Assembly (NCBI GenBank): GCA_027031765.1
Contig: JALVPN010000027.1
Coordinates: 1-19,450, forward strand
Direction: 5' to 3'
DNA from: Promethearchaeota archaeon
GTDB lineage: Archaea; Asgardarchaeota; Thorarchaeia; Thorarchaeales; Thorarchaeaceae
DNA: 19,450 bases
Part shown: in pieces, positions 2,359 to 17,111 of the stretch
Layout: each line of letters starts with the position of its first letter
Position numbering within the stretch: position 1 is the first letter of the stretch
Program-made: the position numbers and the translations under genes
Notes under the pieces: model-generated
Databases searched by the model: none
Told to the model about the DNA's origin: nothing
What the model saw: the letters and a program-made list of their open reading frames with translations, nothing else

Positions 2359-3222
2359 GTGCCGGAACAGTGTAGAGTCGGAGTGCTCAAGCTCGGCTGC
2401 ATCTCGTCGACCCTGTTGGTCGACCTCATCCTCGACGAGCGTGCCACCCGGAAGGACATCCAGGTGCGTGCCTTCACCACTGGTGCCAAGCTCGACCGTG
2501 AGTCGTGCACGTCCGTCCTGTCCCTGCTCGTTGAGTATTCACCCGACTTTGCTGTCGTCGTCAGTCCCAATGCTTCACTTGAGGGGCCAACGGCCGTCCG
2601 GACGCACCTGCAAGAAGTGGGCATCCCCGTGCTGTCGGTCTCGGACGGGCCCGCAAGACGGGCGTTCTATAAGAAGGACGCATCGGGAAAGCGTGTCCCG
2701 GTGGTGTCAGAGGCCCAGGGCTTCGTCTTGGTGCCAGCAGACGCCATGATTGGGGCGCGCAAGGAGTTTCTCGACCCGGTGGAGATGGCAGTGTTCAACT
2801 CTGATGTGCTGATGGTCCTCGCAGCAACTGGCGCCCTCAGGAAGCTGCAGACCATACTTGACTCGATTGTCGAAGATGTGAAGGCTGGCAGGCCCCCGGA
2901 GATGCCAGCACTGACCCTGACGCCAGAGTACGCCACCGAAGGCGAGTTCGAGAACCCATATGCCCGTGCGAAGGCCGTGGCTGCACTTGTCATTGCAGAA
3001 CAGGTGGGCTCTGTGACCCGACAGGCATGCTTCAAGACGGAGGACTCGCGGCAGGGTACGCTCCTTGCGGCTGCTGCCCACGAGATGATGCGTACTGCAT
3101 CTACCCTTGCCGCCGAGGCGCGTGAGTTCGAGAAGTCGCGTGACACCGTCCTCAGGAAGCCCCACAGGTCTGGCGGGGGCGTGGTGGAGCGGCGCGGCCT
3201 CCTAGAAGGTCCTGATAGGTAG
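2359..3222 (+). CDS. mtd: F420-dependent methylenetetrahydromethanopterin dehydrogenase
   Basis: Family motifs throughout: KLGCISST..DLILDERA.R.DI.VR, PDF.VVVSPN...GP, DAMIGARKEFLDPVEMAVFNSD...VLAATG, FENPYARAKA.AA, GCF-like ACF, AAHEMMR.A..LA.EARE.EK..D.V.R.PH. Confidence 0.95.
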   Translation: MPEQCRVGVLKLGCISSTLLVDLILDERATRKDIQVRAFTTGAKLDRESCTSVLSLLVEYSPDFAVVVSPNASLEGPTAVRTHLQEVGIPVLSVSDGPARRAFYKKDASGKRVPVVSEAQGFVLVPADAMIGARKEFLDPVEMAVFNSDVLMVLAATGALRKLQTILDSIVEDVKAGRPPEMPALTLTPEYATEGEFENPYARAKAVAALVIAEQVGSVTRQACFKTEDSRQGTLLAAAAHEMMRTASTLAAEAREFEKSRDTVLRKPHRSGGGVVERRGLLEGPDR

Positions 3223-3233
3223 TGTTGGACCCC

Positions 3234-4826
3234 TCACTTCCTGTTGTTGTTCCGTTTGATGGTGCTCTGCACCACCTCGCGTGCAGCGGCTATGAGCTTC
3301 TCTGCCAGCTTCACGTTCACACCACTGACCCTTGAAGCAAGACGGCGTGCGTCAGCCCCGGCAAGCTGGGCCGCTGACTCGTAGCCCGCAGTCCGCAGCC
3401 TCCTCTCAAGTCCCGGCCCGATGCCCGGTACACGTCTGAGCGGGAGCACTCTGGCCAGCTCCTCCCCCAAGAAGTCACTGAGCTCGGCATCGCTGATCTC
3501 CTCGGTCGCCTCGATGATGTCAATCTGGGTGCGGATGGACTCGAAGTCCTCCTCTCCCAAGAACGCGGATACGGTCTGCTTGATGAGGGACTCGTCGAAG
3601 TCGAGCGACAGGTCTTCAATCTCGACCTCCCTGCCGACTATCTCTTCGAGGTGTCCGGAGAAGTACAGCGCAACAAGTGCGAAGAGTATTGCGAACTGCC
3701 CACCTACGAGCTTCACCCATGCGGGGGTGTGCCACACTCGCAGGTCGAGGGCCCAGAACAGCGCCATGTACCCCATGAAGAACGTCCACGCGCCCGCAAC
3801 ACGGGTCCCCTTTCCCCTTGCCGAACCCAGTTCCGGCCAGATTAGGAACAGGCACAGCCCCATGAGGAACCCTTCGACGGTCCGCTCAAATACGAGCAGA
3901 GGGGCTGCCAGTACGTGGAAGGAGTAGATGTTGCCGGGGTCTTCGTAGCCATAGAACGCCGACCCGAAGATGACCAGTAGGCCCAAGAGGAGCACCGCCA
4001 TACTGAAGGCGACCTTCCGTCCCCTGCGGTCCGCAATGAGACCGGCCAGGGCTGCGGCACCTGCGAGGACCAGCAGCTGCAACACCCCAATCCCTGAGTA
4101 CTGGCTGAGCGACTCGTACGCGTTGTTCCACGCGAACCCCTCCTCAATCTCCATCTTGGTCGAGAAGTACCACAGCATGTGGGACACCAGGACTGCCACC
4201 ATGGCCACAAAGTACCGCATGGTGTTGCCACGGGCGGCGAGTGGCACCTCCTCAAGACGCCACGTACCTATGGGCACTGATATCACGACGCACCCGAGTG
4301 CCGCCGCGGCTGGGACCAGATAGCTCGAGGCACCAGAGAGCAGCCCCACCAGTGAGGCGGTCTCGTAGGCGAATGCTACGAGCAGGGCCAGCCCAAGGAA
4401 CAGGCCTACGCAGCGCCCTCGGAACCTCACCACGATGCTCCTGCCAAGCTTCACGGCCAGTCCGGTGGCAAAGAAGGCCAGTCCGGCAAATGCAGAGAGC
4501 ACCACTGATGTCTCCATCAGCGGCGAGAAGGGGGACGGTGACCCCAAGACTCCGAGCACTACTCCGAGGGCTGTGGGCACCAGGGTACCGACATATATCA
4601 TCACATCGGTCTGCAGGAAGTGGTCCACGAGGATCCCGCTGATGGGCAGTACCAGCGACGCCGCAAGGGCACCGTACCCCAGCAGGAGGAAGTTGTCAAG
4701 GGCTGGTTCGCTGAACAGCGTCCTTGTGGTCAGTCCGTGGACCATGAAGATGAAGTAGGACAGCATGGGTGCGAAGAGCAGGTACACCGATGCGGTCCTG
4801 ATGGGGAACTCTCTGTACTCCAGCAT
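3234..4826 (-). CDS. MFS-type polytopic membrane protein fused to a C-terminal helix-hairpin-helix domain
   Basis: About 12 hydrophobic segments with MFS motif A (GLIADRRGRK) in the second half, then an acidic linker, then LRRVPGIGPGLERRLRTAGYESAAQLAGADARRLA...LAEKLIAAAR (HhH-type, GIG motif). Confidence 0.75.
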   Translation of the reverse strand: MLEYREFPIRTASVYLLFAPMLSYFIFMVHGLTTRTLFSEPALDNFLLLGYGALAASLVLPISGILVDHFLQTDVMIYVGTLVPTALGVVLGVLGSPSPFSPLMETSVVLSAFAGLAFFATGLAVKLGRSIVVRFRGRCVGLFLGLALLVAFAYETASLVGLLSGASSYLVPAAAALGCVVISVPIGTWRLEEVPLAARGNTMRYFVAMVAVLVSHMLWYFSTKMEIEEGFAWNNAYESLSQYSGIGVLQLLVLAGAAALAGLIADRRGRKVAFSMAVLLLGLLVIFGSAFYGYEDPGNIYSFHVLAAPLLVFERTVEGFLMGLCLFLIWPELGSARGKGTRVAGAWTFFMGYMALFWALDLRVWHTPAWVKLVGGQFAILFALVALYFSGHLEEIVGREVEIEDLSLDFDESLIKQTVSAFLGEEDFESIRTQIDIIEATEEISDAELSDFLGEELARVLPLRRVPGIGPGLERRLRTAGYESAAQLAGADARRLASRVSGVNVKLAEKLIAAAREVVQSTIKRNNNRK

Positions 4827-5097: not shown

Positions 5098-6861
5098 CTA
5101 CGTGCTCGACGCCAGGTGCTGTCGGCGCACACGGTACACGTACACCATTGCTCCCACAGCAAGTGCGCAGACCACTGCCTCCAACACGCGGCCGTCAAAG
5201 CCCACGACTGGGCTGAGACCAGTGGCCACCTCCCGGCCGTCAGGCAGTCCGTCGTCGTCGGTGTCGCTGTCCAGCAGGTCTGAGCCATGCTGGTACTCTT
5301 CAAGGTTGGTCAGGCCATCGTCGTCGGGGTCGAGTGACGCATCGCCGTCGTCGGTCGGGTCGAAGCTGTGGGCCACCTCCCAGCCGTCAGGCAGTCCGTC
5401 GTCGTCAGTGTCAGGGCTCTCACCGTCTGTCATGTACATGGGCTCCGAGTAGTCCGACAGCATATCCCCGTCGGCGTCTACGTCCTTGAGACACCCGGTG
5501 CGGCGGAATGATATGTCCCCACCGTGTCCTTGCCAGTACACCCGGCCCCCACTTACCGACGCCTCTACTGCGTACACATTGCTGTCCTCACTGCCTATGA
5601 CGACGTCGAGGTCGCCGTCGCCGTCTATGTCGCCCAGTGCTGGTGAGGAGGCAACACTGTTCCCGGTCTCGTACGACCAGAGGGTGGAGCCGTTGGCACC
5701 GTCCAGTGCATACACCCAGCTGTCGTAGCTGCCGATGACCACGTCCAGACCCCCATCACCGTCCACATCCCCCAGTGCTGCCGATGAGAGCACGACGTGC
5801 CCGGTGGCGTGTGCCCAGAGGACGGAGCCCGTGGTACCGTCAAGCGCGTACACCCGTCTGTCGTAGCTGCCGATGACCACGTCCAAGTCGCCGTCACCGT
5901 CCACGTCGCCAAGCGCTGCCGATGAGAGCACAGCGTCCCCAGTACCGTGTGCCCAGAGGACGGAGGCCGTGGCACCATCAAGTGCGTACACACTACCGTC
6001 CTCACTACCGACTACCACGTCCACGTCGCCGTCGCCGTCGAGGTCTCCCAGCGCAGGGGAGGAGTACACCCCGCGTCCGGTCTCGTACGACCAGAGGAGG
6101 GATCCTGTGGTGCCCTCAAGCGCGTACACCCGACCGTCATCACTGCCGATGACCACGTCCAAGTCGCCGTCACCATCAACATCGCCGAGCGCAGCTGAAG
6201 AGGCCACCTCGTTTCCGGTCTCGTACGACCAGAGGACAGAACCGTTGGCACCATCAAGCGCATACACCCGACTGTCCTGACTGCCGATGACCACGTCCAA
6301 GTCGCCGTCACTGTCGATGTCCCCAAGTGCTGGCGAGGAGTACACCGGACCTCCAGTACCGAATGACCAGAGGATGGAACCATTGCCACCGTCTAGGGCA
6401 TATACCCGGTTGTCGTCACTGCCCACGACGGCATCGAGGTCGCCGTCACCGTCAACGTCCCCAAGTGATGGGGATGAGGCCACGTATGAGGAGGTGTCAT
6501 GAGACCAGATGATGGAGCCATTGCCACCGTCGAGGGCGTACACCTGGCTGTCGCGACTGCCGATGACCACATCCAGGTCGCCGTCACCGTCAACGTCCCC
6601 GAGCGCAGGTGAGGAGAACACCTCATCCCCTGTCCTGTATGACCAGAGGGTGGAGCTGGGGGCACTGGACCGTGCCTGGTGTCCGGGTGGTGTGGCACCA
6701 GTGAGACCGGGCCCCACCTGTGGGGCTGCAATACCGTCATGGCCGCCGCCCACAGCGGTCACTTGTGGCCTCAGCAAAGTCACCCCTCCATGACCCGATA
6801 CTGCTGCGACTACAAACATCACAGTGACTATGGCTGCAAGCAGAACGAATGGTCTCTGCAT
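5098..6861 (-). CDS. Membrane-anchored surface protein: signal peptide, 8 FG-GAP/PQQ-like beta-propeller repeats, TSP3-like Ca-binding repeats, C-terminal TM anchor
   Basis: Hydrophobic N-terminus; 8 x 46-aa repeats WSYxTGxxVxSSPALGDVDGDGDLDVVIGSxDxxVYALDG; DTDDDGLPDGWE/DPDDDGLTNLEE/DTDDDGLPDGRE acidic repeats; TM VLEAVVCALAVGAMVYVY followed by a basic tail RVRR. Confidence 0.9.
   Translation of the reverse strand: MQRPFVLLAAIVTVMFVVAAVSGHGGVTLLRPQVTAVGGGHDGIAAPQVGPGLTGATPPGHQARSSAPSSTLWSYRTGDEVFSSPALGDVDGDGDLDVVIGSRDSQVYALDGGNGSIIWSHDTSSYVASSPSLGDVDGDGDLDAVVGSDDNRVYALDGGNGSILWSFGTGGPVYSSPALGDIDSDGDLDVVIGSQDSRVYALDGANGSVLWSYETGNEVASSAALGDVDGDGDLDVVIGSDDGRVYALEGTTGSLLWSYETGRGVYSSPALGDLDGDGDVDVVVGSEDGSVYALDGATASVLWAHGTGDAVLSSAALGDVDGDGDLDVVIGSYDRRVYALDGTTGSVLWAHATGHVVLSSAALGDVDGDGGLDVVIGSYDSWVYALDGANGSTLWSYETGNSVASSPALGDIDGDGDLDVVIGSEDSNVYAVEASVSGGRVYWQGHGGDISFRRTGCLKDVDADGDMLSDYSEPMYMTDGESPDTDDDGLPDGWEVAHSFDPTDDGDASLDPDDDGLTNLEEYQHGSDLLDSDTDDDGLPDGREVATGLSPVVGFDGRVLEAVVCALAVGAMVYVYRVRRQHLASST
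5542..6645 (-). repeat. Eight tandem 138-bp intragenic repeats (propeller blades)
   Basis: The GACCAGA motif recurs at 6641, 6503, 6365 and onward with a 138-nt period; DNA similarity is clear (e.g. CTGCCGATGACCACGTCCAAGTCGCCGTCACC). Confidence 0.9.
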
Positions 6862-7266: not shown

Positions 7267-8151
7267 TTGTCGAGCAGGCTTCGTGTACTGGAGTTCATGG
7301 TCCTGAAAGCTGGCGGGATCCCCGTATTCCACTACTCCTTCTCAGGTGCGCAACGGCTAGATGAGCTGCTCTCCGGTTTCCTGTCCGCCATCACGAGCTT
7401 TGCCTCGGAGTTCGGTGAGCGGTCAGTGCAGAGCCTCTCGTTCGAGGGCTCGGAGCTCCTCTATGAGCAGACCTCCGACATGGCGATGTTCATCTTCCTC
7501 GTCGAGTCGGGCGCCCCGGAGAAGGTGCTGAGGGCCGTCCTCCGTGAACTGAGCGAGAGGTTCCTGTCCCGATATCGTGTGGAGCTCGACATGGACGTGC
7601 CCGTCCGAGAACTCTTCTTGGACTTCAAGCATGATGTCCTGGAAGTGTTCGCACGGTACGAGTCGGTCATGCGTGTTGCGTCGAGTCTGGGGCCCTTTGT
7701 GGTACCGACTATCATCCGGGAGCAGTGGGAGCACACCAGTAGCAGGGGCCTCCTCGATGACCTGCACAGGGACTTCGGCATCACCGCCACGCGTGTGGTC
7801 GAGGCCATTGATGGCAAGAAGCCCCTCCACGAGATTGCGCTATCGCTCGGCCTTGAGGAGGAGGAGGTGGCGCAGGTGGTGGAGTATCTGACGATTGCGG
7901 GCGTCCTTTCGGTCGCACGGATGCACCCTGTTGTGCGTGCCGACGACACTCGTTTTGATGCCTACCTTGACCTCGTGGGCCTGCCACGGAGGGACTACAA
8001 CCTGTTGAAGCGTGCCAGCCCCTTGTGCACCGGGGAGTACCCCCTTACGGTTGTGAGTGAGCGCATTGGCGTCACTGCTGAGAGGCTATACGAGGTTCTG
8101 TCGAAGCTCGGCGACAACGTCCAGTGGCGGCTTGTGGAGGTCGCTGCATGA
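7267..8151 (+). CDS. Longin-domain protein with two C-terminal winged helices (NPRL2-like architecture), 294 aa
   Basis: TTG start after AGAGGAGA. Longin signature VLKAGGIPVFHYSF...ELLSGFLSAITSFASEFGERSVQSLSF...LRAVLRELSERFLSRY. wHTH1: VVEAIDGKKPLHEIALSLGLEEEEVAQVVEYLTIAGVL. wHTH2: LCTGEYPLTVVSERIGVTAERLYEVLSKLG. Confidence 0.8.
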   Translation: MSSRLRVLEFMVLKAGGIPVFHYSFSGAQRLDELLSGFLSAITSFASEFGERSVQSLSFEGSELLYEQTSDMAMFIFLVESGAPEKVLRAVLRELSERFLSRYRVELDMDVPVRELFLDFKHDVLEVFARYESVMRVASSLGPFVVPTIIREQWEHTSSRGLLDDLHRDFGITATRVVEAIDGKKPLHEIALSLGLEEEEVAQVVEYLTIAGVLSVARMHPVVRADDTRFDAYLDLVGLPRRDYNLLKRASPLCTGEYPLTVVSERIGVTAERLYEVLSKLGDNVQWRLVEVAA

Positions 8152-8230
8152 GCCACGAATGTATAAGTGGGCCGGGTACTATCATAGCCATCCATATCTG
8201 TACCCGTGTCCATGTCGAAGGGCGAAACAA

Positions 8231-9544
8231 ATGGTGAAAGAAATCATCGTCCTCAGGGAAACCGGCATCCCACTGTTCCACTACAGCATCAGTGGTACCA
8301 AACGCCTCGACGAGCTGGTGGCCGGTTTCCTGTCCGCCGTTGGCTTCTTTGCCGAGCAGGTGGGTGACGAGAAGATAAAGGTGATCTCCTTCGCGAAGAG
8401 CAAGTTCGTATGGGAGAAGGTCGGCGACCTCTACTTCATTGCCCTTGTTGCTGAGGAGGACAGCCCTGAGATCTACGGCGTCATCCTCCGCAGCCTTGCT
8501 CAGCAATTCGTGGCCACCTACTACTCAGAGCTCCGCAAAGAGGAGCCGAGCCCGAAGGTGTTCGTCGCGTTCTCGGACGTCGTCGAGGCCACGCTCCAGA
8601 AGTTCGATGGCATCCCCGGCATCGCCCGGAGGTACCGTACGGCCCTCGTGCCGGTGGAGACCGTCAGGTCGCTCAAGAAGGCCCAGGCAAGGACCGAGGA
8701 GCACCCCGGTGTACACCGTTCTGCGGTCATTACTTCCGATGGCTACGTCGTGGTCTCCAACTTCAGGACATACGAACTTGAGGCCATTCTCGACATACTG
8801 TTGACGTTCTCCAGTCGCTCCGGCCCCGTCAAGGAGCAGCAGATTGCTGTCCACACGAGCCTCGACTCCAACACCAGGTACTATATCCGCCGCATGGGCC
8901 CGGTCGGCTGTTGCGTGTTCGTGGTCGATGCGGGTCTTGGCCTTGACGAGTGCGAGAGGGTTACGACGCCCCTGCGTGACGAGGTGAGTCGTACCGACTT
9001 CTCCAAGATCCAGCGTATCGACCCGGACGAGAGTGGTGGCGTCCTTGAGTTCTACCCCTACGATGTGTTGCGACTGCTCCGCCCCAAGGAGGAGATAGGA
9101 CAGGAGGAGAACGTCCTGTTTGTCGGACTGCCCATGGTCACCGTACAGAACATCAGGGCCGTCCTGCGGACTGTTGGTGAGAACACCACCTTGGACGAAG
9201 TGTACGAGGACAGCGGCCTTGAGCGTGAGGACGTGGACGAGGCGCTTGCCATACTCATCAGCAAGGGACTGGCAGAAGTGGTACGTGTTTTCCCGGTCAT
9301 CGCGGACCGCGACGAGCGCTTCGCAGCATTCCTCGAGGTCATCGGCATCCCCAAACGTGACTATGTTGTCCTCGACACCATCTGGGAGTACTGCAACGGC
9401 AGCCACTCCATCCGCGAGATATCGGAGAAGACACGGGTCCCGGCGTCGCGGATTGTCGAAGTCATGAGGGCGCTCGGCAGGTACGTGGAGTGGAACACAG
9501 AACGAATGCTGACGACCTCCCGCCGGGTCGAGGGCCGACCGTGA
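8231..9544 (+). CDS. Paralogous longin + roadblock-like + two winged-helix protein, 437 aa
   Basis: The start is set at ATG 8231 (MVKEIIVLRETGIPLFHYS) by alignment to the upstream paralogue; the track start at 8057 overlaps the previous gene. The central insert GVHRSAVITSDGYVVVSNF resembles the roadblock/LC7 beta-hairpin. The C-terminal half aligns with that of 7267-8151. Confidence 0.8.
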   Translation: MVKEIIVLRETGIPLFHYSISGTKRLDELVAGFLSAVGFFAEQVGDEKIKVISFAKSKFVWEKVGDLYFIALVAEEDSPEIYGVILRSLAQQFVATYYSELRKEEPSPKVFVAFSDVVEATLQKFDGIPGIARRYRTALVPVETVRSLKKAQARTEEHPGVHRSAVITSDGYVVVSNFRTYELEAILDILLTFSSRSGPVKEQQIAVHTSLDSNTRYYIRRMGPVGCCVFVVDAGLGLDECERVTTPLRDEVSRTDFSKIQRIDPDESGGVLEFYPYDVLRLLRPKEEIGQEENVLFVGLPMVTVQNIRAVLRTVGENTTLDEVYEDSGLEREDVDEALAILISKGLAEVVRVFPVIADRDERFAAFLEVIGIPKRDYVVLDTIWEYCNGSHSIREISEKTRVPASRIVEVMRALGRYVEWNTERMLTTSRRVEGRP

Positions 9545-9585: not shown

Positions 9586-10539
9586 ATGCCAGACCTTGAG
9601 AGCCGATACGTGGGCTGCATGCTCGGTATGGCCATCGGTGATGCCCTGGGTGGGCCCACTGAGTTCATGTCCTTTGAGTCAATCCGCAAGACATGGCCAC
9701 CCGGTGGTGTCACGGACTTCTGCAGCTTCAGGGGCCTGCCAGCTGGCTCCTATACTGACGACACCGAGATGGCCCTTGCTGTGGCGCGCGGCATCCTTGG
9801 TGCCAGCTCGCTCGACGTGACCGCCATACTTGATGCAATAGCCGGCGAGTTCGTCCGGTGGTACGAGAATGTCGACTGGGCACGCTCGCCCGGCACGACG
9901 TGTACCGGCTCGGTTGCGAAACTCGTTGAGGGGGAGCACTGGACGGCCTCTGGGAGGAATGACTCCATGGGCTGTGGGACTGCGATGCGCGCACCACCCG
10001 TAGGCCTTGCATTTGCCCCCGACCGTGACCTCCTCCGGGAGGTCGCAGCCCGTCAGTCGCTCATCACGCACGGCCACGATGTCGCAACAGCGGGCTCGGT
10101 TGCGGTGGCCCTGATGGTCGCCGAGGCTGTCCAGGGGGCCCATCCGGACGACCTTCTCGCAATAGTGCGTGACTCCGTCGCCGAGATCAGCGATGTGTTC
10201 CTTGAAGCCCTCGACCGCGTGCCACCTGCTGTTGAGCTGGGAAATACGGCTCAGGCGCACTCCCTCCTGGGCCCCGGCTGGACGGCGGACGAGGCCGTCG
10301 CAGGTGCACTACATGCACTTACAATGCACCCGACATCATACAGGGACGCGGTACTTGAGGCAGCGAACTCCGGTGGTGACACCGACACGAAGGCATGCAT
10401 CGTGGGGGCTGTACTCGGGGCATCCTTGGGTGTCGGGGGCATCCCTGATGTTTGGCGCCAACATGTGGAGGACGGCGAGCTGCTTGTCGAGACCGGCAGA
10501 GAACTGTTGCTCTATGTCCGTCGCCACTTCGGAATATGA
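9586..10539 (+). CDS. ADP-ribosylglycohydrolase (DraG/ARH family)
   Basis: Family motifs GMAIGDALGGPTEF, YTDDTEM, GCGTAMR (GNG..MR variant), SLITHGH and NSGGDTDT...GAVLGA; the metal-binding acidic residues are intact. Confidence 0.93.
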   Translation: MPDLESRYVGCMLGMAIGDALGGPTEFMSFESIRKTWPPGGVTDFCSFRGLPAGSYTDDTEMALAVARGILGASSLDVTAILDAIAGEFVRWYENVDWARSPGTTCTGSVAKLVEGEHWTASGRNDSMGCGTAMRAPPVGLAFAPDRDLLREVAARQSLITHGHDVATAGSVAVALMVAEAVQGAHPDDLLAIVRDSVAEISDVFLEALDRVPPAVELGNTAQAHSLLGPGWTADEAVAGALHALTMHPTSYRDAVLEAANSGGDTDTKACIVGAVLGASLGVGGIPDVWRQHVEDGELLVETGRELLLYVRRHFGI

Positions 10540-10681: not shown

Positions 10682-10731
10682 CACAGCAACACATGGACAG
10701 CCATAGGACATATGATTTGGGGCCTCTACTG

Positions 10732-11493
10732 ATGTCAGGGCGCATTGTCAGCATTCACTCGTTCCGTGGCGGCACTGGCAAGTCGAACATCTCGGCCAAC
10801 CTCGCAGCGGTAGCTGCACTTGCGGGGAAGCGGGTCGCAGTGATGGACACAGACGTTGCATCACCCGGCATCCACGTGATTTTTGGGATGGGCCGCGAGA
10901 AACTCCAGTACACTCTCAACGACTACCTCAGGGGCGAGTGTGACATCACTGATGCGTGCATTGACATGACCCGTCGCTTGGGCATCAGACAGGGCAAACT
11001 ATACCTCATCCCGAGCTCCATGAGCGCCAACGACATAACGCGCATACTCCGGGAGGGCTATGAGGTCTCTGACCTGAGGAACGGTTTCTCTGAGGTGATT
11101 GAGGCACGCGACCTCGACTACCTGATAATCGACACCCACCCGGGCCTCGACAGGGAAACGCTCCTGTCCATGGCCACAGCCGACTTCCTCTTCGTCGTCG
11201 CTAGGATTGACGAGCAGGACCTCCTCGGTACCGCCGCCACTCTGAGCGTTGCACGGAAGCTCCAGGTCCCAGACATCCGCATCATAGTCAACAAGAAGCC
11301 CAGTATCTATGAGGACAGGGCAATCCTGTCAGAGGTGGAGCGCAAGTTCAGGACCAAGGTCGCTACGATAATACCCCTCGTTCCCATCCTGATAGAGGCT
11401 GGCAGCCGCTACATCGTCACGCTCAAACACCCGGACAACGAGTTCACGAAGCGCATTGAGGAGGTATACAGGGTGATGGAGGGCGAGGCCTGA
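10732..11493 (+). CDS. MinD/ParA-family (SIMIBI) ATPase, SxRGGTGKS subtype, 253 aa
   Basis: SIHSFRGGTGKSNISANLA (deviant Walker A), VAVMDTDVASPG (switch I), LIIDTHPG (Walker B), VNK. ATG 10732 is preferred because ATG 10693 lies too close to the TATA-like box. Confidence 0.9.
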   Translation: MSGRIVSIHSFRGGTGKSNISANLAAVAALAGKRVAVMDTDVASPGIHVIFGMGREKLQYTLNDYLRGECDITDACIDMTRRLGIRQGKLYLIPSSMSANDITRILREGYEVSDLRNGFSEVIEARDLDYLIIDTHPGLDRETLLSMATADFLFVVARIDEQDLLGTAATLSVARKLQVPDIRIIVNKKPSIYEDRAILSEVERKFRTKVATIIPLVPILIEAGSRYIVTLKHPDNEFTKRIEEVYRVMEGEA

Positions 11494-11600
11494 CCCCGGT
11501 CCCCGTGCGTGGTACTCGCCACTAGCGGACAGGTGACCGGGGTACCGCCGAGCAGACACACCGGTGGGTTCCCGGTATGCACCCGTCACCGGTGTCTGTC
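11493..11600. terminator. Two consecutive GC-rich inverted repeats after the MinD stop (possible terminator/3' structure between convergent genes)
   Basis: ACCCCGGTC (11493-11501)/GACCGGGGT (11535-11543) is a perfect 9-bp repeat; CAGAC(AC)ACCGGTG (11553-11566)/CACCGGTGTCTG (11587-11598). No U-tract. Confidence 0.3.
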
Positions 11601-11696
11601 GCAGCCGTCACGTTTCCAACACCCGATGGTATGGCCGGCATACTCTACACCTGGCCGTTGGTCACATCACGTGACGCCCTTGGGTGCAGCCACGGC

Positions 11697-11810
11697 TCAG
11701 TCGACAAGGACTGGTATGTATGCAATCGCAAGCGCGAGTAGCAGCAGCACCAGCGAGATGATGAGGCGTAGGGGGAGTAGCACTCCATCCGACGACCTGC
11801 GTCTCTCCAC
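11697..11810 (-). CDS. Small single-TM protein (37 aa), not in the ORF track
   Basis: GTG start 9 nt after a perfect GGAGGTGA Shine-Dalgarno. Translation MERRRSSDGVLLPLRLIISLVLLLLALAIAYIPVLVD has a basic N-terminus and one hydrophobic helix. Confidence 0.55.
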   Translation of the reverse strand: MERRRSSDGVLLPLRLIISLVLLLLALAIAYIPVLVD

Positions 11811-12252
11811 TGGCAGACTTCACCTCCAGTGTCTAGTGTCGCCCCAGTGCACTGCACCCCGCACGCAGTTGTTGATGGCCTCGCCCAAGTCTGCTCTGTG
11901 CTACCGTGGTCCTGTTGCTGGCCTGTGTCCCCGGTCCACACCACCAGTGAGGGCCTGCATGCGGGCTGGTCGTGGTAGGGCGTCGGGGACAGGTGGGACA
12001 TCCCACCTGCAGTGCAATGGGTCCTTCTTCTCTATGTCCACGTGGCAAGATGAGTCTGTCGTAGTGTAGCTGCCACCCACACAGTTGCCCGTGGACACTG
12101 TGTCAGGAGAATTGACGGTGTCTGTCGGGCCGCTACGGCCTCTTGGACGGGCGTGTGTGCAGAATGCAAGCAGTTTTCAATGGGTCCTCATCTCTATGTC
12201 CTCCCACAGTGGTCAGTGCGACCATATTGTCACGGACGAGGTGTTGTCGGTC

Positions 12253-12772: not shown

Positions 12773-14599
12773 TCATATCACGTCCGACAGGCCGACACGC
12801 TCTATTGTCTCGACCGTTGGCAGTCCGTCCGTGTCAAAGCCCCGCAACTGGTAGAACCTCTCAAGGCACGCTTCAAAGTCGTCACGGCTGACTGCGGCCG
12901 TCATGCCGTCCCTTGGGCCCCCACGTTCTGGCTCCCACATCCTTGGGGGCAGGACATCGCTGGCCCGTGTGACCCCCTCCCGGTGGTTGAACATCCGTGT
13001 GAGGACGGCCACCCTCTGGGCGAACAGTGCCACCGAGTCCTGGGTGTACTCAAGGCCCGTGGCAGCGTTCAGGAGTGCTATCTTCTCCTCGTGGTGGAGT
13101 GGGATGTGGTATGTGAAGTGACAGATGACCAGTGAGTCTGTGAGCACCTTCTGGTCGCGTGCTGTGACCATTGACTCCACCACATCGAGTGCCGATGTGT
13201 CGGGCGGCCCCGTTGTTGCAGGCCAGCCCCTGAGGTGACTTGCACCTACGTCAGCGGTGACATATGACAGGCCCATGCCGCGCCTGCCACGTGGGTCCCA
13301 TGCCGGGACTTCGAGACCCTTGACGTGCACCGCTATCTCCCCTGCAGCACCACCCAGTTGTCTTGCAGCCTCACGCACGCCGTCGGCTAGCAGGTCGCCA
13401 ATACCCTCCCTGCGACATATCAGCCGCAGTAGCTCCTCAGCGCCTTCCGCGTCGCCGAACCTGATGTCGAGCCCGTGTTTCTCAGTCGTGATGATGCCGC
13501 GGCTACAGGCCTCCATTGCGAACCCGATGACGCCGCCGGCACTGATGGTGTCGAGCCCGAGCTTGTCGCACAGGTAGTTGAGCCGCAGCAGGGCCTGCGG
13601 GTCGTCAATGCCAAGGTCTCCTCCAAGAAGGCCTATTGACTCGTACTCTATGCAGGACTCGACCTCCACACCAGCCCTGTCCGGGTCCTCTGTCCTGTAC
13701 GCCCTTGTGCAACGCATTATGCACTGCGGACACGAGTTGTGAGTGCCCAGGGCCCACCGCTCAAAGGCCTCTGGCCCAATCCTCTCGTGCTGTTCAAAGT
13801 AGCCCGTTTCATAGTTTCGTGTCGGGAACTGTCCGAGGCTGTTCGCCACCGGCACGAGGAACGGGGTCCCGTAGTCCTTGAACCCGGACTCCTTCTCGCG
13901 CCACCGCCTTGCGACTTCCCGGTTCACCTCACGTATCGCATCGGGATCCGCAGCCCTCACATCACTGGTCCCATGGACAACGACTGCTTTCAGCCGCTTC
14001 GCGCCCATGACCGCACCGGCACCACCGCGTCCGGTCTGGTGGACGACCTCACACGCCCCGGTGGCGAACCTACACAGGTTCTCCCCTGCTGGGCCAATTG
14101 CATATACTGAGGCCTGCTCTCCGTACAGTCCGTGGAGCTGCTCTGTCACCTCATGGACTCCAAGGCCCCACAGGTCCGGCGCCTCCCTGACCGCCACATC
14201 CTCGTCGTCAACAGTCACGACCACAGGTCCCTTTGCCTGTCCGCGTACGGCAATGAGGTCGTAGCCTGCACGCTTGATGTCCCTGCCCAGCGGCCCCCCG
14301 CAGTGTGAGTCTAGGAACAGCCCTGTGAGGGGTGACTTTGTGACGAGGGTCCAGCGCCCGGTGTTTGGTGCGTGCAGCCCCTGTAGTGGTCCCGTGAGGA
14401 AGAAGAGCACGTTCTCCTCCCCAAGCGGGTCTGCGCCTGCCGGCACGCGCGTGTACAGCAGGTACGCACCCAGTCCCTTGCCACCAATGAACATCTCAAG
14501 GGTCTGTCCACTGAGTCCCTCCACCCACGTCTTGCCTGTAGAGAGGTCGACCCAGAGGGCCCTCTTTTTCCAGCACTCGTGTGTCAACTCTGTGTCCAC
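12773..14599 (-). CDS. aor: Tungsten/molybdopterin aldehyde:ferredoxin oxidoreductase family protein
   Basis: FIGGKGLG, KSPLTG...DSHCGG, AIGPAGENL, GRGGAGAVMGAKRLKAV, 4Fe-4S CPQCIMRC, EYES, CDKLGLDTISAG, HVKGLE.P.WDPR, GASHLR, DSLVICHF, FNHREG, YQLRG.D.DGLP. The subfamily (AOR/FOR/WOR) was not determined. Confidence 0.95.
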   Translation of the reverse strand: MDTELTHECWKKRALWVDLSTGKTWVEGLSGQTLEMFIGGKGLGAYLLYTRVPAGADPLGEENVLFFLTGPLQGLHAPNTGRWTLVTKSPLTGLFLDSHCGGPLGRDIKRAGYDLIAVRGQAKGPVVVTVDDEDVAVREAPDLWGLGVHEVTEQLHGLYGEQASVYAIGPAGENLCRFATGACEVVHQTGRGGAGAVMGAKRLKAVVVHGTSDVRAADPDAIREVNREVARRWREKESGFKDYGTPFLVPVANSLGQFPTRNYETGYFEQHERIGPEAFERWALGTHNSCPQCIMRCTRAYRTEDPDRAGVEVESCIEYESIGLLGGDLGIDDPQALLRLNYLCDKLGLDTISAGGVIGFAMEACSRGIITTEKHGLDIRFGDAEGAEELLRLICRREGIGDLLADGVREAARQLGGAAGEIAVHVKGLEVPAWDPRGRRGMGLSYVTADVGASHLRGWPATTGPPDTSALDVVESMVTARDQKVLTDSLVICHFTYHIPLHHEEKIALLNAATGLEYTQDSVALFAQRVAVLTRMFNHREGVTRASDVLPPRMWEPERGGPRDGMTAAVSRDDFEACLERFYQLRGFDTDGLPTVETIERVGLSDVI

Positions 14600-14628: not shown

Positions 14629-14781
14629 CTATGTGGTCTTGATGTCCACTCGCAGGACTTCGCCGGCCTCGACGTCCCTGAGGTTCTTGAGGAAGGCTTC
14701 AAGGATGTCCTTGAGGACGCCTGAGACGAACCTATTAGTGGCCACACGCTGCCCATTGACGTACAACTCAAGTCCTGTCAT
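14629..14781 (-). CDS. Small 50-aa protein resembling the C-terminal domain of MobB-type molybdopterin biosynthesis proteins
   Basis: MTGLELYVNGQRVATNRFVSGVLKDILEAFLKNLRDVEAGEVLRVDIKTT fits the 'L.VNG..I..N.FV..I....I..ML..L' pattern. It ends 29 nt before the aor start. The N-terminal 108 aa of track ORF 14629..15105 look non-coding. Confidence 0.7.
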   Translation of the reverse strand: MTGLELYVNGQRVATNRFVSGVLKDILEAFLKNLRDVEAGEVLRVDIKTT

Positions 14782-14810
14782 TTCTGGTCGGGGCAGTCTT
14801 GCTGGTGGCA

Positions 14811-14817
14811 CTTTAAG
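14811..14817 (-). promoter_or_regulatory. Putative TATA box (CTTAAAG) for the small-protein/aor unit
   Basis: About 30 nt upstream of ATG 14781, consistent with a near-leaderless transcript. Confidence 0.45.
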
Positions 14818-15063
14818 GTTCTTCCCGGTGGCGGTGTGGAGACCGTTGTTGTCCCCTGCTGTGAGGGCCCGTCCTCGTGCCCGTTGCTGATACGTCTTTG
14901 CCACGTCGTCTGGTACGGGGCGGCCCGTCGTGGTGTGTGGCCTCACTAGCGGGTGACCGCCGAGCACTGGTGCAGCCCGCACCGGTGTCCCCGTGCTCTT
15001 GTCTTGAGTCCTCGTGCCCTGCACTTGCCAGCTGTGAGTGTGCCGCACTCTCTCCGATATGCA

Positions 15064-15069
15064 TTTATA
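15064..15069 (+). promoter_or_regulatory. Putative TATA box (TTTATA) for the membrane protein/esterase unit
   Basis: Canonical archaeal TATA about 57 nt upstream of ATG 15126; a GGTGTGGAG RBS-like element lies before the ATG. Confidence 0.55.
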
Positions 15070-15125
15070 CCCCTCCCAGCCGTAGGGTGGCCAAGTATTG
15101 ACCAACAGAAGGTGTGGAGTCTAGA

Positions 15126-17111
15126 ATGGCCTTTGATGTTGTGAGATCAGCTATCACTCAGAAGACCTCGGAGGGTCAACAGTTCGAGCCCCTGAACCGG
15201 CCGTCGAGTATGGGTGGCATCCTAGGCGCAATTGCTGCAGTCATCGGGCTGATTGCAGGTGGCGGTAGGCTGCTCATCCCGACACCGTCCATCGGCCCTG
15301 ATGCCATCCATGATGTCTCCTACTACTTGCCTGCAACACTTTTCCTCGGTCTACTGACACTCTCACTTATCGTGCAGCTCCGGGGTATCCGGAAACTCCG
15401 GACGAAGCTGGCCTCTTCATTCCCACTGATCTCGTACATCCTCGTGCTGGTCGGCATCACGGCTACTGCGTACATGTTCTATGGTGGTACTGTGTACCAA
15501 CTTGAGGGTCGGATCAGGCCGTGGGCAACTGAGATGGTCATGCTCGGGTCGGTCCTCATAGTCTTCTACCAGATGCTGGCGGTGCTGTACCTAGACTCCA
15601 GCAAGAACTGGATTGGCCTTCTGGCTGGTCTGTGCAATGCCCTCCTCGTCCCGGTCGCCATGATTGGCCATGCACTGAACCCAGCACTGGTCTATGTTGC
15701 CTATGTGGTCTTCCTTGTCGGTCAGGTCTTCACAGCGCTCTTCTGGCTCGCACCTGAGTCTGACATCCGTGAGTTCGAGAGGAGCAGTGACATTGCCAAG
15801 TTCGCATTCGGCATTATCGGCGTCCTCACATTCGTAGTTGGTGCCGTCGCCACTTTTGTCGGCCCCATCGCAGTGGAGGAGGGCGTCGCTGTCTGGATGC
15901 CTTGGAGCACGATGGTCTCCCCATCGGAGTACCTGACCAACCCCGCCCTCGTATGTGCCTTCTGTGCTATGTTGATGGTCTGGACGACCGCCATACCAAG
16001 GATGGGTGCCAAGGAGCTGCGCATCGACCATGTGCGGAAGGACATAATCAAGGGCGGTACCAGATGGTTCATGATGCTGCTCGCAGGACTTGGCGTCTTC
16101 GTCGCCGGGATTGCCGGGTCCGGCAACCCTGATGTGGCTGCAAGTGCGTCGTTCTGGATGTCATCCCTACCGGGCTCGGTGATAATCCTTGCGGGCGCCC
16201 TCTACGTGAGCAGGTCCGACGTGATAACGGGCATGCCTCTCCTTGTGGCTGGCGTGCTGCTCACGGTGCACCCCTCTGTGCTCCCGTTCCTCGTCATATG
16301 TACGTGGGCGGCGCTCCTCGTAGCGCAGATTCTACTCCTGATAGAGACCAAGGTCCGCGGCTTTGCGAGCTTCTCTCAGGGCTTCCTCACCATGATACTG
16401 CTCTTTGGCAGCTCCGCCCTCTTCCTGATGTTCCTGCTGGGTGGGTTCGGTGAGGGCCCGGCAGCCCTCTGGCCGACCAACAAGTGGTTCAACATCGGCA
16501 TGTTCCCTGACATCCCGGTCGCGGCTCAGATCGGCACAGTACTCGCACTACCGACGCTTGTGCTCCTCCTGCGGAACATGGCGGTTGCAGGTCTGGCCCA
16601 CCTACGGCATCACTCTAGTGATGCGCTCTTGGGGATGAGCTTCATCTTCGCATTCTTCGTGCCGCTCATTGCCGGCAGCGATGTGGTCTCGCACCAGGCC
16701 AACATCGCGGCTGCTGTACTGATTGCTCTCTACACGATCAGCTTTGTCCTCGTCCTCTCAATCAACCTCAACCTAGCAGGCGATGTCGAGGACCAGGGCT
16801 ACGCATTCGAGGGTACCTTCATACGCATGACCACCATCGTGGGCATGATATCAGGGATGATAGTCGTGTTCGTCGTGCTCACCACCTTTGCGGCTGTCGG
16901 CACAACACCCACTGACATTGCAAGGGTCATCACACTACTCGTGGTCTTTGTGGTGGGCCTTGAGATCATCTGCGACATCGGTTGGTTCCTTGCAAGCGTC
17001 CGCCTTGGAATATTCAGGCAGGGCTTCAAGTTCATGACCGTAGCAGAAGCCCAGGCCAGTGTCCCGGTCAAGGAGCAGGCCCTTGACCTACCCGTAGCAA
17101 GGCGTCCATGA
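15126..17111 (+). CDS. Large polytopic membrane protein of unknown function (661 aa, roughly 16-18 predicted TM helices)
   Basis: Long ORF almost entirely made of hydrophobic 20-aa segments with short loops; no family motif recognised. ATG 15126 is preferred over GTG 15114. Confidence 0.8.
   Translation: MAFDVVRSAITQKTSEGQQFEPLNRPSSMGGILGAIAAVIGLIAGGGRLLIPTPSIGPDAIHDVSYYLPATLFLGLLTLSLIVQLRGIRKLRTKLASSFPLISYILVLVGITATAYMFYGGTVYQLEGRIRPWATEMVMLGSVLIVFYQMLAVLYLDSSKNWIGLLAGLCNALLVPVAMIGHALNPALVYVAYVVFLVGQVFTALFWLAPESDIREFERSSDIAKFAFGIIGVLTFVVGAVATFVGPIAVEEGVAVWMPWSTMVSPSEYLTNPALVCAFCAMLMVWTTAIPRMGAKELRIDHVRKDIIKGGTRWFMMLLAGLGVFVAGIAGSGNPDVAASASFWMSSLPGSVIILAGALYVSRSDVITGMPLLVAGVLLTVHPSVLPFLVICTWAALLVAQILLLIETKVRGFASFSQGFLTMILLFGSSALFLMFLLGGFGEGPAALWPTNKWFNIGMFPDIPVAAQIGTVLALPTLVLLLRNMAVAGLAHLRHHSSDALLGMSFIFAFFVPLIAGSDVVSHQANIAAAVLIALYTISFVLVLSINLNLAGDVEDQGYAFEGTFIRMTTIVGMISGMIVVFVVLTTFAAVGTTPTDIARVITLLVVFVVGLEIICDIGWFLASVRLGIFRQGFKFMTVAEAQASVPVKEQALDLPVARRP

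Follow-up and report, generated by a model that had tools for sequence, protein, structure and literature searches.

Longin–winged-helix paralogues with NPRL2/NPRL3-like architecture encoded beside a variant MinD/ParA-type ATPase in Asgard archaea

Longin and roadblock platforms form the common core of eukaryotic GTPase regulators, among them GATOR1, folliculin, Mon1-Ccz1 and Ragulator. In GATOR1 (SEACIT in yeast), NPRL2 and NPRL3 (Npr2 and Npr3) are paralogues that both begin with a longin and end in a winged-helix domain, and the residue that makes NPRL2 a GTPase-activating protein (GAP) is Arg78, located on a longin loop (PMC8534245). The tri-longin subunits of Rab guanine nucleotide exchange factors (RabGEFs), namely Mon1, Ccz1, Fuzzy, Inturned and HPS1/4, are likewise paralogous heterodimers, joined via their first longin domains. 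A recent preprint (10.64898/2026.10.19.760177) describes mainly archaeal systems in which a ParA gene is coupled to one or more winged helix-turn-helix (wHTH) genes, some of them fused to a profilin-longin-like domain, and reports that ParA genes can displace MglA beside MglB-type genes; its text makes no mention of Asgard lineages. Here we compare with these systems a 19,450-nucleotide (nt) stretch of DNA, hereafter the window (positions 1 to 19,450 of contig JALVPN010000027.1, assembly GCA_027031765.1), from a Promethearchaeota archaeon of the family Thorarchaeaceae, whose genome comprises 2.95 Mb and is 95% complete. It encodes two neighbouring longin–winged-helix proteins, A and B, and downstream of them a variant ATPase of the MinD/ParA type. 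We infer, with a probability of about 50%, that A and B would form a longin dimer that serves as a platform for binding and regulating, or for reading out, the co-operonic ATPase. A longin or roadblock platform that comes with its own nucleoside triphosphatase (NTPase) is a known kind of arrangement; what is unusual here is the class of the partner.

The genes and domains under study are the following:

7267..8151, plus strand: gene A, 294 amino acids (aa), opening with TTG; longin joined by a short helical linker to two winged helices
7282..7671, plus strand: longin domain of A (residues ~6-135)
7780..8139, plus strand: tandem winged helices of A (residues ~172-224 and ~225-291), from model secondary structure and Pfam matches, net acidic
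8231..9544, plus strand: gene B, 437 aa, opening with ATG; a longin, a roadblock and two winged helices
8231..8608, plus strand: longin domain of B (residues 1-126)
8630..9010, plus strand: roadblock/LC7 domain of B (residues ~134-260), not in A
9131..9496, plus strand: tandem winged helices of B (residues ~301-357 and ~358-422), from Pfam matches and the model
10693..11493, plus strand: variant MinD/ParA-type ATPase, the conserved partner; likely start at 10732

The TTG start of gene A aligns with the first Met in 28 orthologues. The mechanically called open reading frame (ORF) of gene B opens at a GTG at position 8057, inside gene A, but every orthologue starts at the Met of the motif MVKEI, and we therefore place the true start at 8231, which leaves a spacer of 79 nt between A and B. 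The ATPase probably starts at 10732, because its orthologues open at a Met 13 codons into the ORF found in the window. A BLASTP comparison of A with B aligns both their N-terminal parts (34% identity over 141 aa, E 1e-26) and their C-terminal parts (34% identity over 111 aa, E 4e-19), with ~140 additional residues in the middle of B. This likeness is far above chance, and judged by their sequences A and B are paralogues. An earlier reading of the window from its letters alone (hereafter the original prediction) had proposed just such a paralogous pair, and the peptide strings that it quoted all occur in the translations of A and B, in ORFs of the same strand whose positions it had given correctly.

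The neighbours of A and B were compared with 20 loci by tblastn and blastp, which revealed a fixed core order: a divergently transcribed gene for a membrane protein with a helix-hairpin-helix (HhH) tail, then A (where present), B, and a MinD/ParA-type ATPase of 250-266 aa. In 16 compared loci the ATPase gene lies directly 3' of B, or of A where B is missing (in the window itself the two genes are separated by an insertion described below). These loci come from the families f1, f2 and f12; families (f) and genera (g) of the 301 Asgard genomes that were searched are numbered, f1 being the window's own family. In f1 the stop codon of B and the start codon of the ATPase, as inferred from alignments, overlap or lie at most ~10 nt apart; in f2 and f12 the order of B and ATPase is kept with short gaps, and in genus g12 the ATPase directly follows A. 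The ATPases are 74-88% identical within f1 and 50-62% identical in f2 and f12. Their match to the NCBIfam model of archaeal MinD falls far under the cut-off, and the Walker A motif HS[FY]RGGTGKSN, in which Arg replaces the signature Lys, does not vary among 20 orthologues drawn from three families. With a threshold of E<1e-40, orthologues of the ATPase are found in 63 of 76 genomes of f1, in 17 of 19 of f12 and in the single genomes of f2, f28 and f30 (1/1 each), and in 0 of ~200 genomes from 25 other Asgard families. Of the 13 f1 genomes that lack the ATPase, 12 have neither A nor B; as related genomes are not independent of one another, this count is purely descriptive. Gene linkage, phyletic pattern and the folds described below are shown; dimerisation of A and B and control of the ATPase are inferred.

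Full-length orthologues of A are confined to f1. The family f2, which belongs to the same order as f1, and f12 possess one B-type gene (424-435 aa) that is 28-33% identical to B over the full length. In the other Asgard families the profile of B finds longins or tandem winged helices solely in different architectures, and five genomes examined from such families contain no close orthologue of the ATPase. The original prediction expected the two genes to be conserved neighbours, which holds for most genera of f1, where they are 60-110 nt apart, but not for genus g5, where 3.6-13 kb separate them, nor for one genome of g2, where the distance is 2 kb. Five genomes of g12 contain A and have B nowhere in the genome. 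The existence of lineages with one paralogue (A only in g12, B only in f2 and f12) means that neither protein is indispensable to the other everywhere. In a maximum-likelihood tree rooted on relatives from Loki-type genomes, A forms a clade with support 100/100 and a long stem, located among B-type sequences, and joins the only f2 sequence (97/91), while the monophyly of the Thor B proteins is weak (75/88). This placement suggests that A descended from a B-type gene by losing the roadblock domain, with the reservation that the branching order is weakly supported and may reflect long-branch attraction.

AlphaFold2 models, for which 29 orthologues of A and 42 of B were aligned (mean pLDDT, the predicted local distance difference test, 84.0 for A and 82.4 for B), depict A with a longin that a short linker joins to two winged helices, and B with a roadblock between its longin and its two winged helices. 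The longin of A has the topology strand-strand-helix-strand-strand-strand-helix. Domain-level structure alignment confirms the longin, roadblock and winged-helix folds, in line with the earlier expectation that both N-terminal domains fold as longins. The best Pfam match of the longins is Fuz_longin_1 (19 of 29 A orthologues, best E 4e-6; 39 of 42 B orthologues, best E 2e-5), and the winged-helix regions match TrmB and HTH_47. NCBIfam has no match for either protein, and a search of PDB sequences with the B-family profile reported only one MarR regulator (E 0.05).

Comparison of the models with known structures brings out the likeness to NPRL2 and NPRL3. The best 10 of 10 Foldseek matches of A in the PDB are NPRL3 and NPRL2 (yeast Npr3 and Npr2) chains of GATOR1/SEACIT, with E from 1.3e-8 to 1.6e-5 and 354-460 aligned columns covering the whole chain. 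Isolated longins start only at ~5e-5 in the same list, so that the C-terminal half evidently adds to the match. In the ESM Atlas, a eukaryotic cluster whose members are 100% Pfam NPR2 aligns to A over 217 residues (template modelling (TM) scores 0.45/0.43). At the level of sequence the A-family profile aligns the first winged helix of A (residues 165-220) with residues 183-238 of human NPRL2 (E 0.19, not significant alone). The resemblance to NPRL2 that the original prediction pointed out is real, collinear and weak. The last winged helix adds sub-threshold matches to HTH_NPRL3 in 9 of 29 A and 19 of 42 B orthologues (best E ~2-3e-4, 1.8e-4 being the lowest); for the window's own B the value is E 0.21 (residues 381-419), and a search of the whole genome with this model gives E 0.115, control genomes matching as well. 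The families Pfam NPR2 (PF06218) and NPR3 (PF03666) match none of the 29 A and 42 B orthologues, and a search of the whole genome misses A and B even at E 10. A domain-level comparison with VIA lists no NPRL2 or NPRL3 chain among the best 50 matches of either model, because generic longins and roadblocks occupy the list; taken as single domains, the modelled longins of A and B look generic too. The NPRL2/NPRL3-like architecture, which was the core of the original prediction, is thus supported by predicted structure and not by membership in a sequence family.

Were A and B a proto-GATOR1, as was also predicted, their heterodimer would act as a GAP on a Rag-like GTPase whose gene lies at another place in the genome. 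The whole-chain matches and the NPR2 cluster described above agree with this idea, as do weak matches to Gtr1_RagA-type GTPases on contigs other than the window's, and so does a name already in the literature: Liu et al. (bioRxiv 10.1101/2020.10.19.343400; Nature 2021) called a Thor family of such domain organisation "NPRL2-like". On the other side, the alignments of A and B orthologues contain no invariant arginine in any longin loop that could correspond to Arg78 of NPRL2 (PMC8534245), the sole (near-)invariant longin arginine being R89 of A, which lies within helix 2 according to the alignments and the model. The Pfam IML1 model finds no DEPDC5/Iml1 in the 95%-complete genome, the families NPR2 and NPR3 are not matched, no small GTPase is found among the genes of the A/B locus, and lineages with A only or B only exist. 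B moreover differs from NPRL2 and NPRL3 by its additional roadblock, and the NTPase linked to the locus is MinD/ParA-like. A GATOR1-like function of A and B is not supported, and we consider a proto-GATOR1 very unlikely. Because the conserved gene partner is a MinD/ParA-type ATPase and not a Rag GTPase, A and B look like an archaeal NTPase-platform module with NPRL2/NPRL3-like architecture and not like a Rag GAP. The Liu et al. family matches these proteins and their distribution, so that, as the original prediction had allowed, the family appears to be already catalogued; the accessible part of that work makes no mention of a paralogous pair, a roadblock insertion or a linkage to MinD/ParA.

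For B the structural relationships are ordered differently, with Mon1/Fuzzy-type RabGEF subunits first among the Foldseek matches in the PDB and NPRL3/NPRL2 second (from E 3.7e-6). B has the longin-then-roadblock order of the tri-longin subunits, which are its best structural match, and one might imagine the longin pair as an exchange-factor platform for a Rab- or Arf-like GTPase, comparable to Mon1-Ccz1 or Fuzzy-Inturned. This we regard as highly improbable: the third longin is absent, the C-terminal 140 residues of B being two winged helices instead, A has no second domain at all, and the root-mean-square deviation of 8.9 indicates that the two domains are oriented unlike those of Fuzzy. Neither a Rab at the locus nor any linked GTPase was found in the Thor genomes.

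The winged helices invite a different comparison. With a ParA-type gene coupled to wHTH genes that have a longin-like domain, in the conserved order A, B, ATPase, the locus shares a feature of the ParA-wHTH systems of the preprint cited above (10.64898/2026.10.19.760177), and, as in its MglA-MglB and ParA-wHTH contexts, a roadblock/longin protein is encoded beside its NTPase. A and B could accordingly be ParB/SegB-like adaptors that bind DNA with their winged helices on behalf of the ATPase and multimerise through the longin. TrmB/MarR-type helix-turn-helix matches, present in 42 of 42 B orthologues, and the tail of DNA-binding HhH type on the conserved membrane neighbour would agree with such a role. 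The charge of the winged helices does not: the median net charge is -3 and -2 for the two of A, and 0 and -1 for the two of B, and acidic-to-neutral domains would fit protein contacts, as made by the C-terminal domains of NPRL2 and NPRL3, better than the reading of DNA. In addition, the systems of the preprint, which are characterised by a PwHTH1 domain and by a ParA from the "ConB2" assemblage, have a fast-evolving, defence-type context; the A/B locus is stable, vertically inherited and part of the core genome, with TackOD1 (1234-2238), MTD (2359-3222) and AFOR (12773-14599) as stable neighbours across the genera of f1 and no variable island. PADLOC was negative for A and B, for the membrane-HhH protein and for the ADP-ribosylglycohydrolase encoded nearby, and gave only generic P-loop matches for the ATPase. 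Taken together, we think it unlikely that A and B are DNA adaptors of this kind.

We return to the proposed platform for the ATPase. A and B would dimerise in the manner of NPRL2 and NPRL3, through contacts of the longin sheets and of the winged-helix C-terminal domains, forming a heterodimer where both are present and presumably a homodimer where only one of them exists. The dimer might then control the nucleotide state of the ATPase or read it, in the way longin/roadblock dimers do for Ras-like GTPases. This reading draws on the folds, on the gene linkage and phyletic pattern of the ATPase, on the acidic-to-neutral winged helices, on the Loki relatives described below, whose partner is a Ras-family GTPase, and on the report of the preprint (10.64898/2026.10.19.760177) that ParA-type ATPases can take the place of the Ras-like GTPase MglA beside MglB-type genes. 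The predicted A+B complex reached an interface score (ipSAE) of 0.51, compared with 0.09 for the best control, with at least 93% of contacts shared between prediction runs and a partner pLDDT of at least 78. Among 80 solved complexes used to calibrate ipSAE, 58 attain this mark, as do 2 of 110 mismatched pairs, but only 7 of the 80 have scores of 0.60 or less. The heterodimer of the original prediction thus receives weak support from the model, while lineages with a single paralogue show that it would not be a universal feature of the family.

Several observations weigh against a platform for the ATPase. The score of the A-B complex is weak and may be inflated by the likeness to solved longin dimers. 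The linkage of the genes does not by itself distinguish a regulator from an adaptor or a cargo. The ATPase of f28 (46% identity) has no B-like neighbour; upstream of it are a tetratricopeptide repeat (TPR) protein and a 137-aa ORF unlike B. Finally, the TrmB model matches B in its first winged helix with a score that exceeds the Pfam cut-off (33.9 bits, E 2.9e-8 at residues 317-352 of the window's B; best B orthologue E 1e-11), so that B might bind DNA. A stricter version of the proposal, in which a dimer of A and B or of a single paralogue is a true regulator, of activator or exchange type, of a SIMIBI-class MinD/ParA ATPase, and the same family serves Ras-like GTPases in Loki-type genomes, is in our opinion tentative and on balance doubtful.

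The closest relatives with the architecture of A are longin–winged-helix proteins of 361-366 aa from the Loki-type genus g24 (TM score to A 0.52 in the Atlas). In two genomes their genes start 60-80 nt after the gene of a 179-aa Ras-family GTPase (Ras E 5e-47). The unit of GTPase and longin–winged-helix protein is tandemly duplicated with 82% identity in one of these loci (L062, G225:C103, 1137-4812) and single in the other (L063, G195:C32). We also found longins of the same type fused to P-loop/Arf-like GTPase domains, in two tandem genes of ~300 aa (L057, G225:C50, 331-2249) and in a further gene (L059, G076:C25, 1148-2050), and a longin of this type fused to a V4R domain (L058, G262:C41, 1173-2123). 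From the GTPase-linked and GTPase-fused relatives, together with the linkage to the ATPase in Thor genomes, it follows that the family is encoded in the company of P-loop switch proteins, the one in Thor being a SIMIBI ATPase.

Three further genes lie around A, B and the ATPase in the window:

3234..4826, minus strand: polytopic membrane protein with a C-terminal HhH tail, the divergent conserved neighbour of the A/B operon
5098..6861, minus strand: gene for an FG-GAP/PQQ beta-propeller, an insertion that separates A from the membrane-HhH gene
9586..10539, plus strand: gene for a DraG-like ADP-ribosylglycohydrolase, lying 3' of B and 5' of the ATPase gene, in the window's genome only

The membrane-HhH protein possesses an acidic linker; its position is kept in f1, and that of its C-terminal half in f12. 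No gene separates it from A in the other loci compared, and the position of the beta-propeller gene is peculiar to the window. The ADP-ribosylglycohydrolase was considered as a member of the module and dismissed: none of the other loci compared has it between B and the ATPase, and searches of three related genomes did not find it (E<1e-20), its gene being a local insertion. The TackOD1 output-domain protein contains zinc ribbons, and Pfam gives no match to its first 180 residues. The ORFs at 11509-12069 (186 aa), 14629-15105 (minus strand, 158 aa) and 15114-17111 (665 aa) match nothing in Pfam or NCBIfam; homologues of the 665-aa and 158-aa ORFs occur in several related loci, and no homologue of the 186-aa ORF is present in the compared loci.

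In this Asgard lineage the domain order of NPRL2 and NPRL3, and in one paralogue also the longin-roadblock order of Mon1 and Fuzzy, is tied to a MinD/ParA-type ATPase. A, B and the ATPase are three small soluble proteins, suited to direct biochemistry. If the dimer truly regulates the ATPase, architectures of the NPRL2/NPRL3 and Mon1/Fuzzy kind would be older than their dedication to Rag and Rab GTPases; and if the platform controls the ATPase, partner NTPases would have been exchanged across classes of P-loop proteins.

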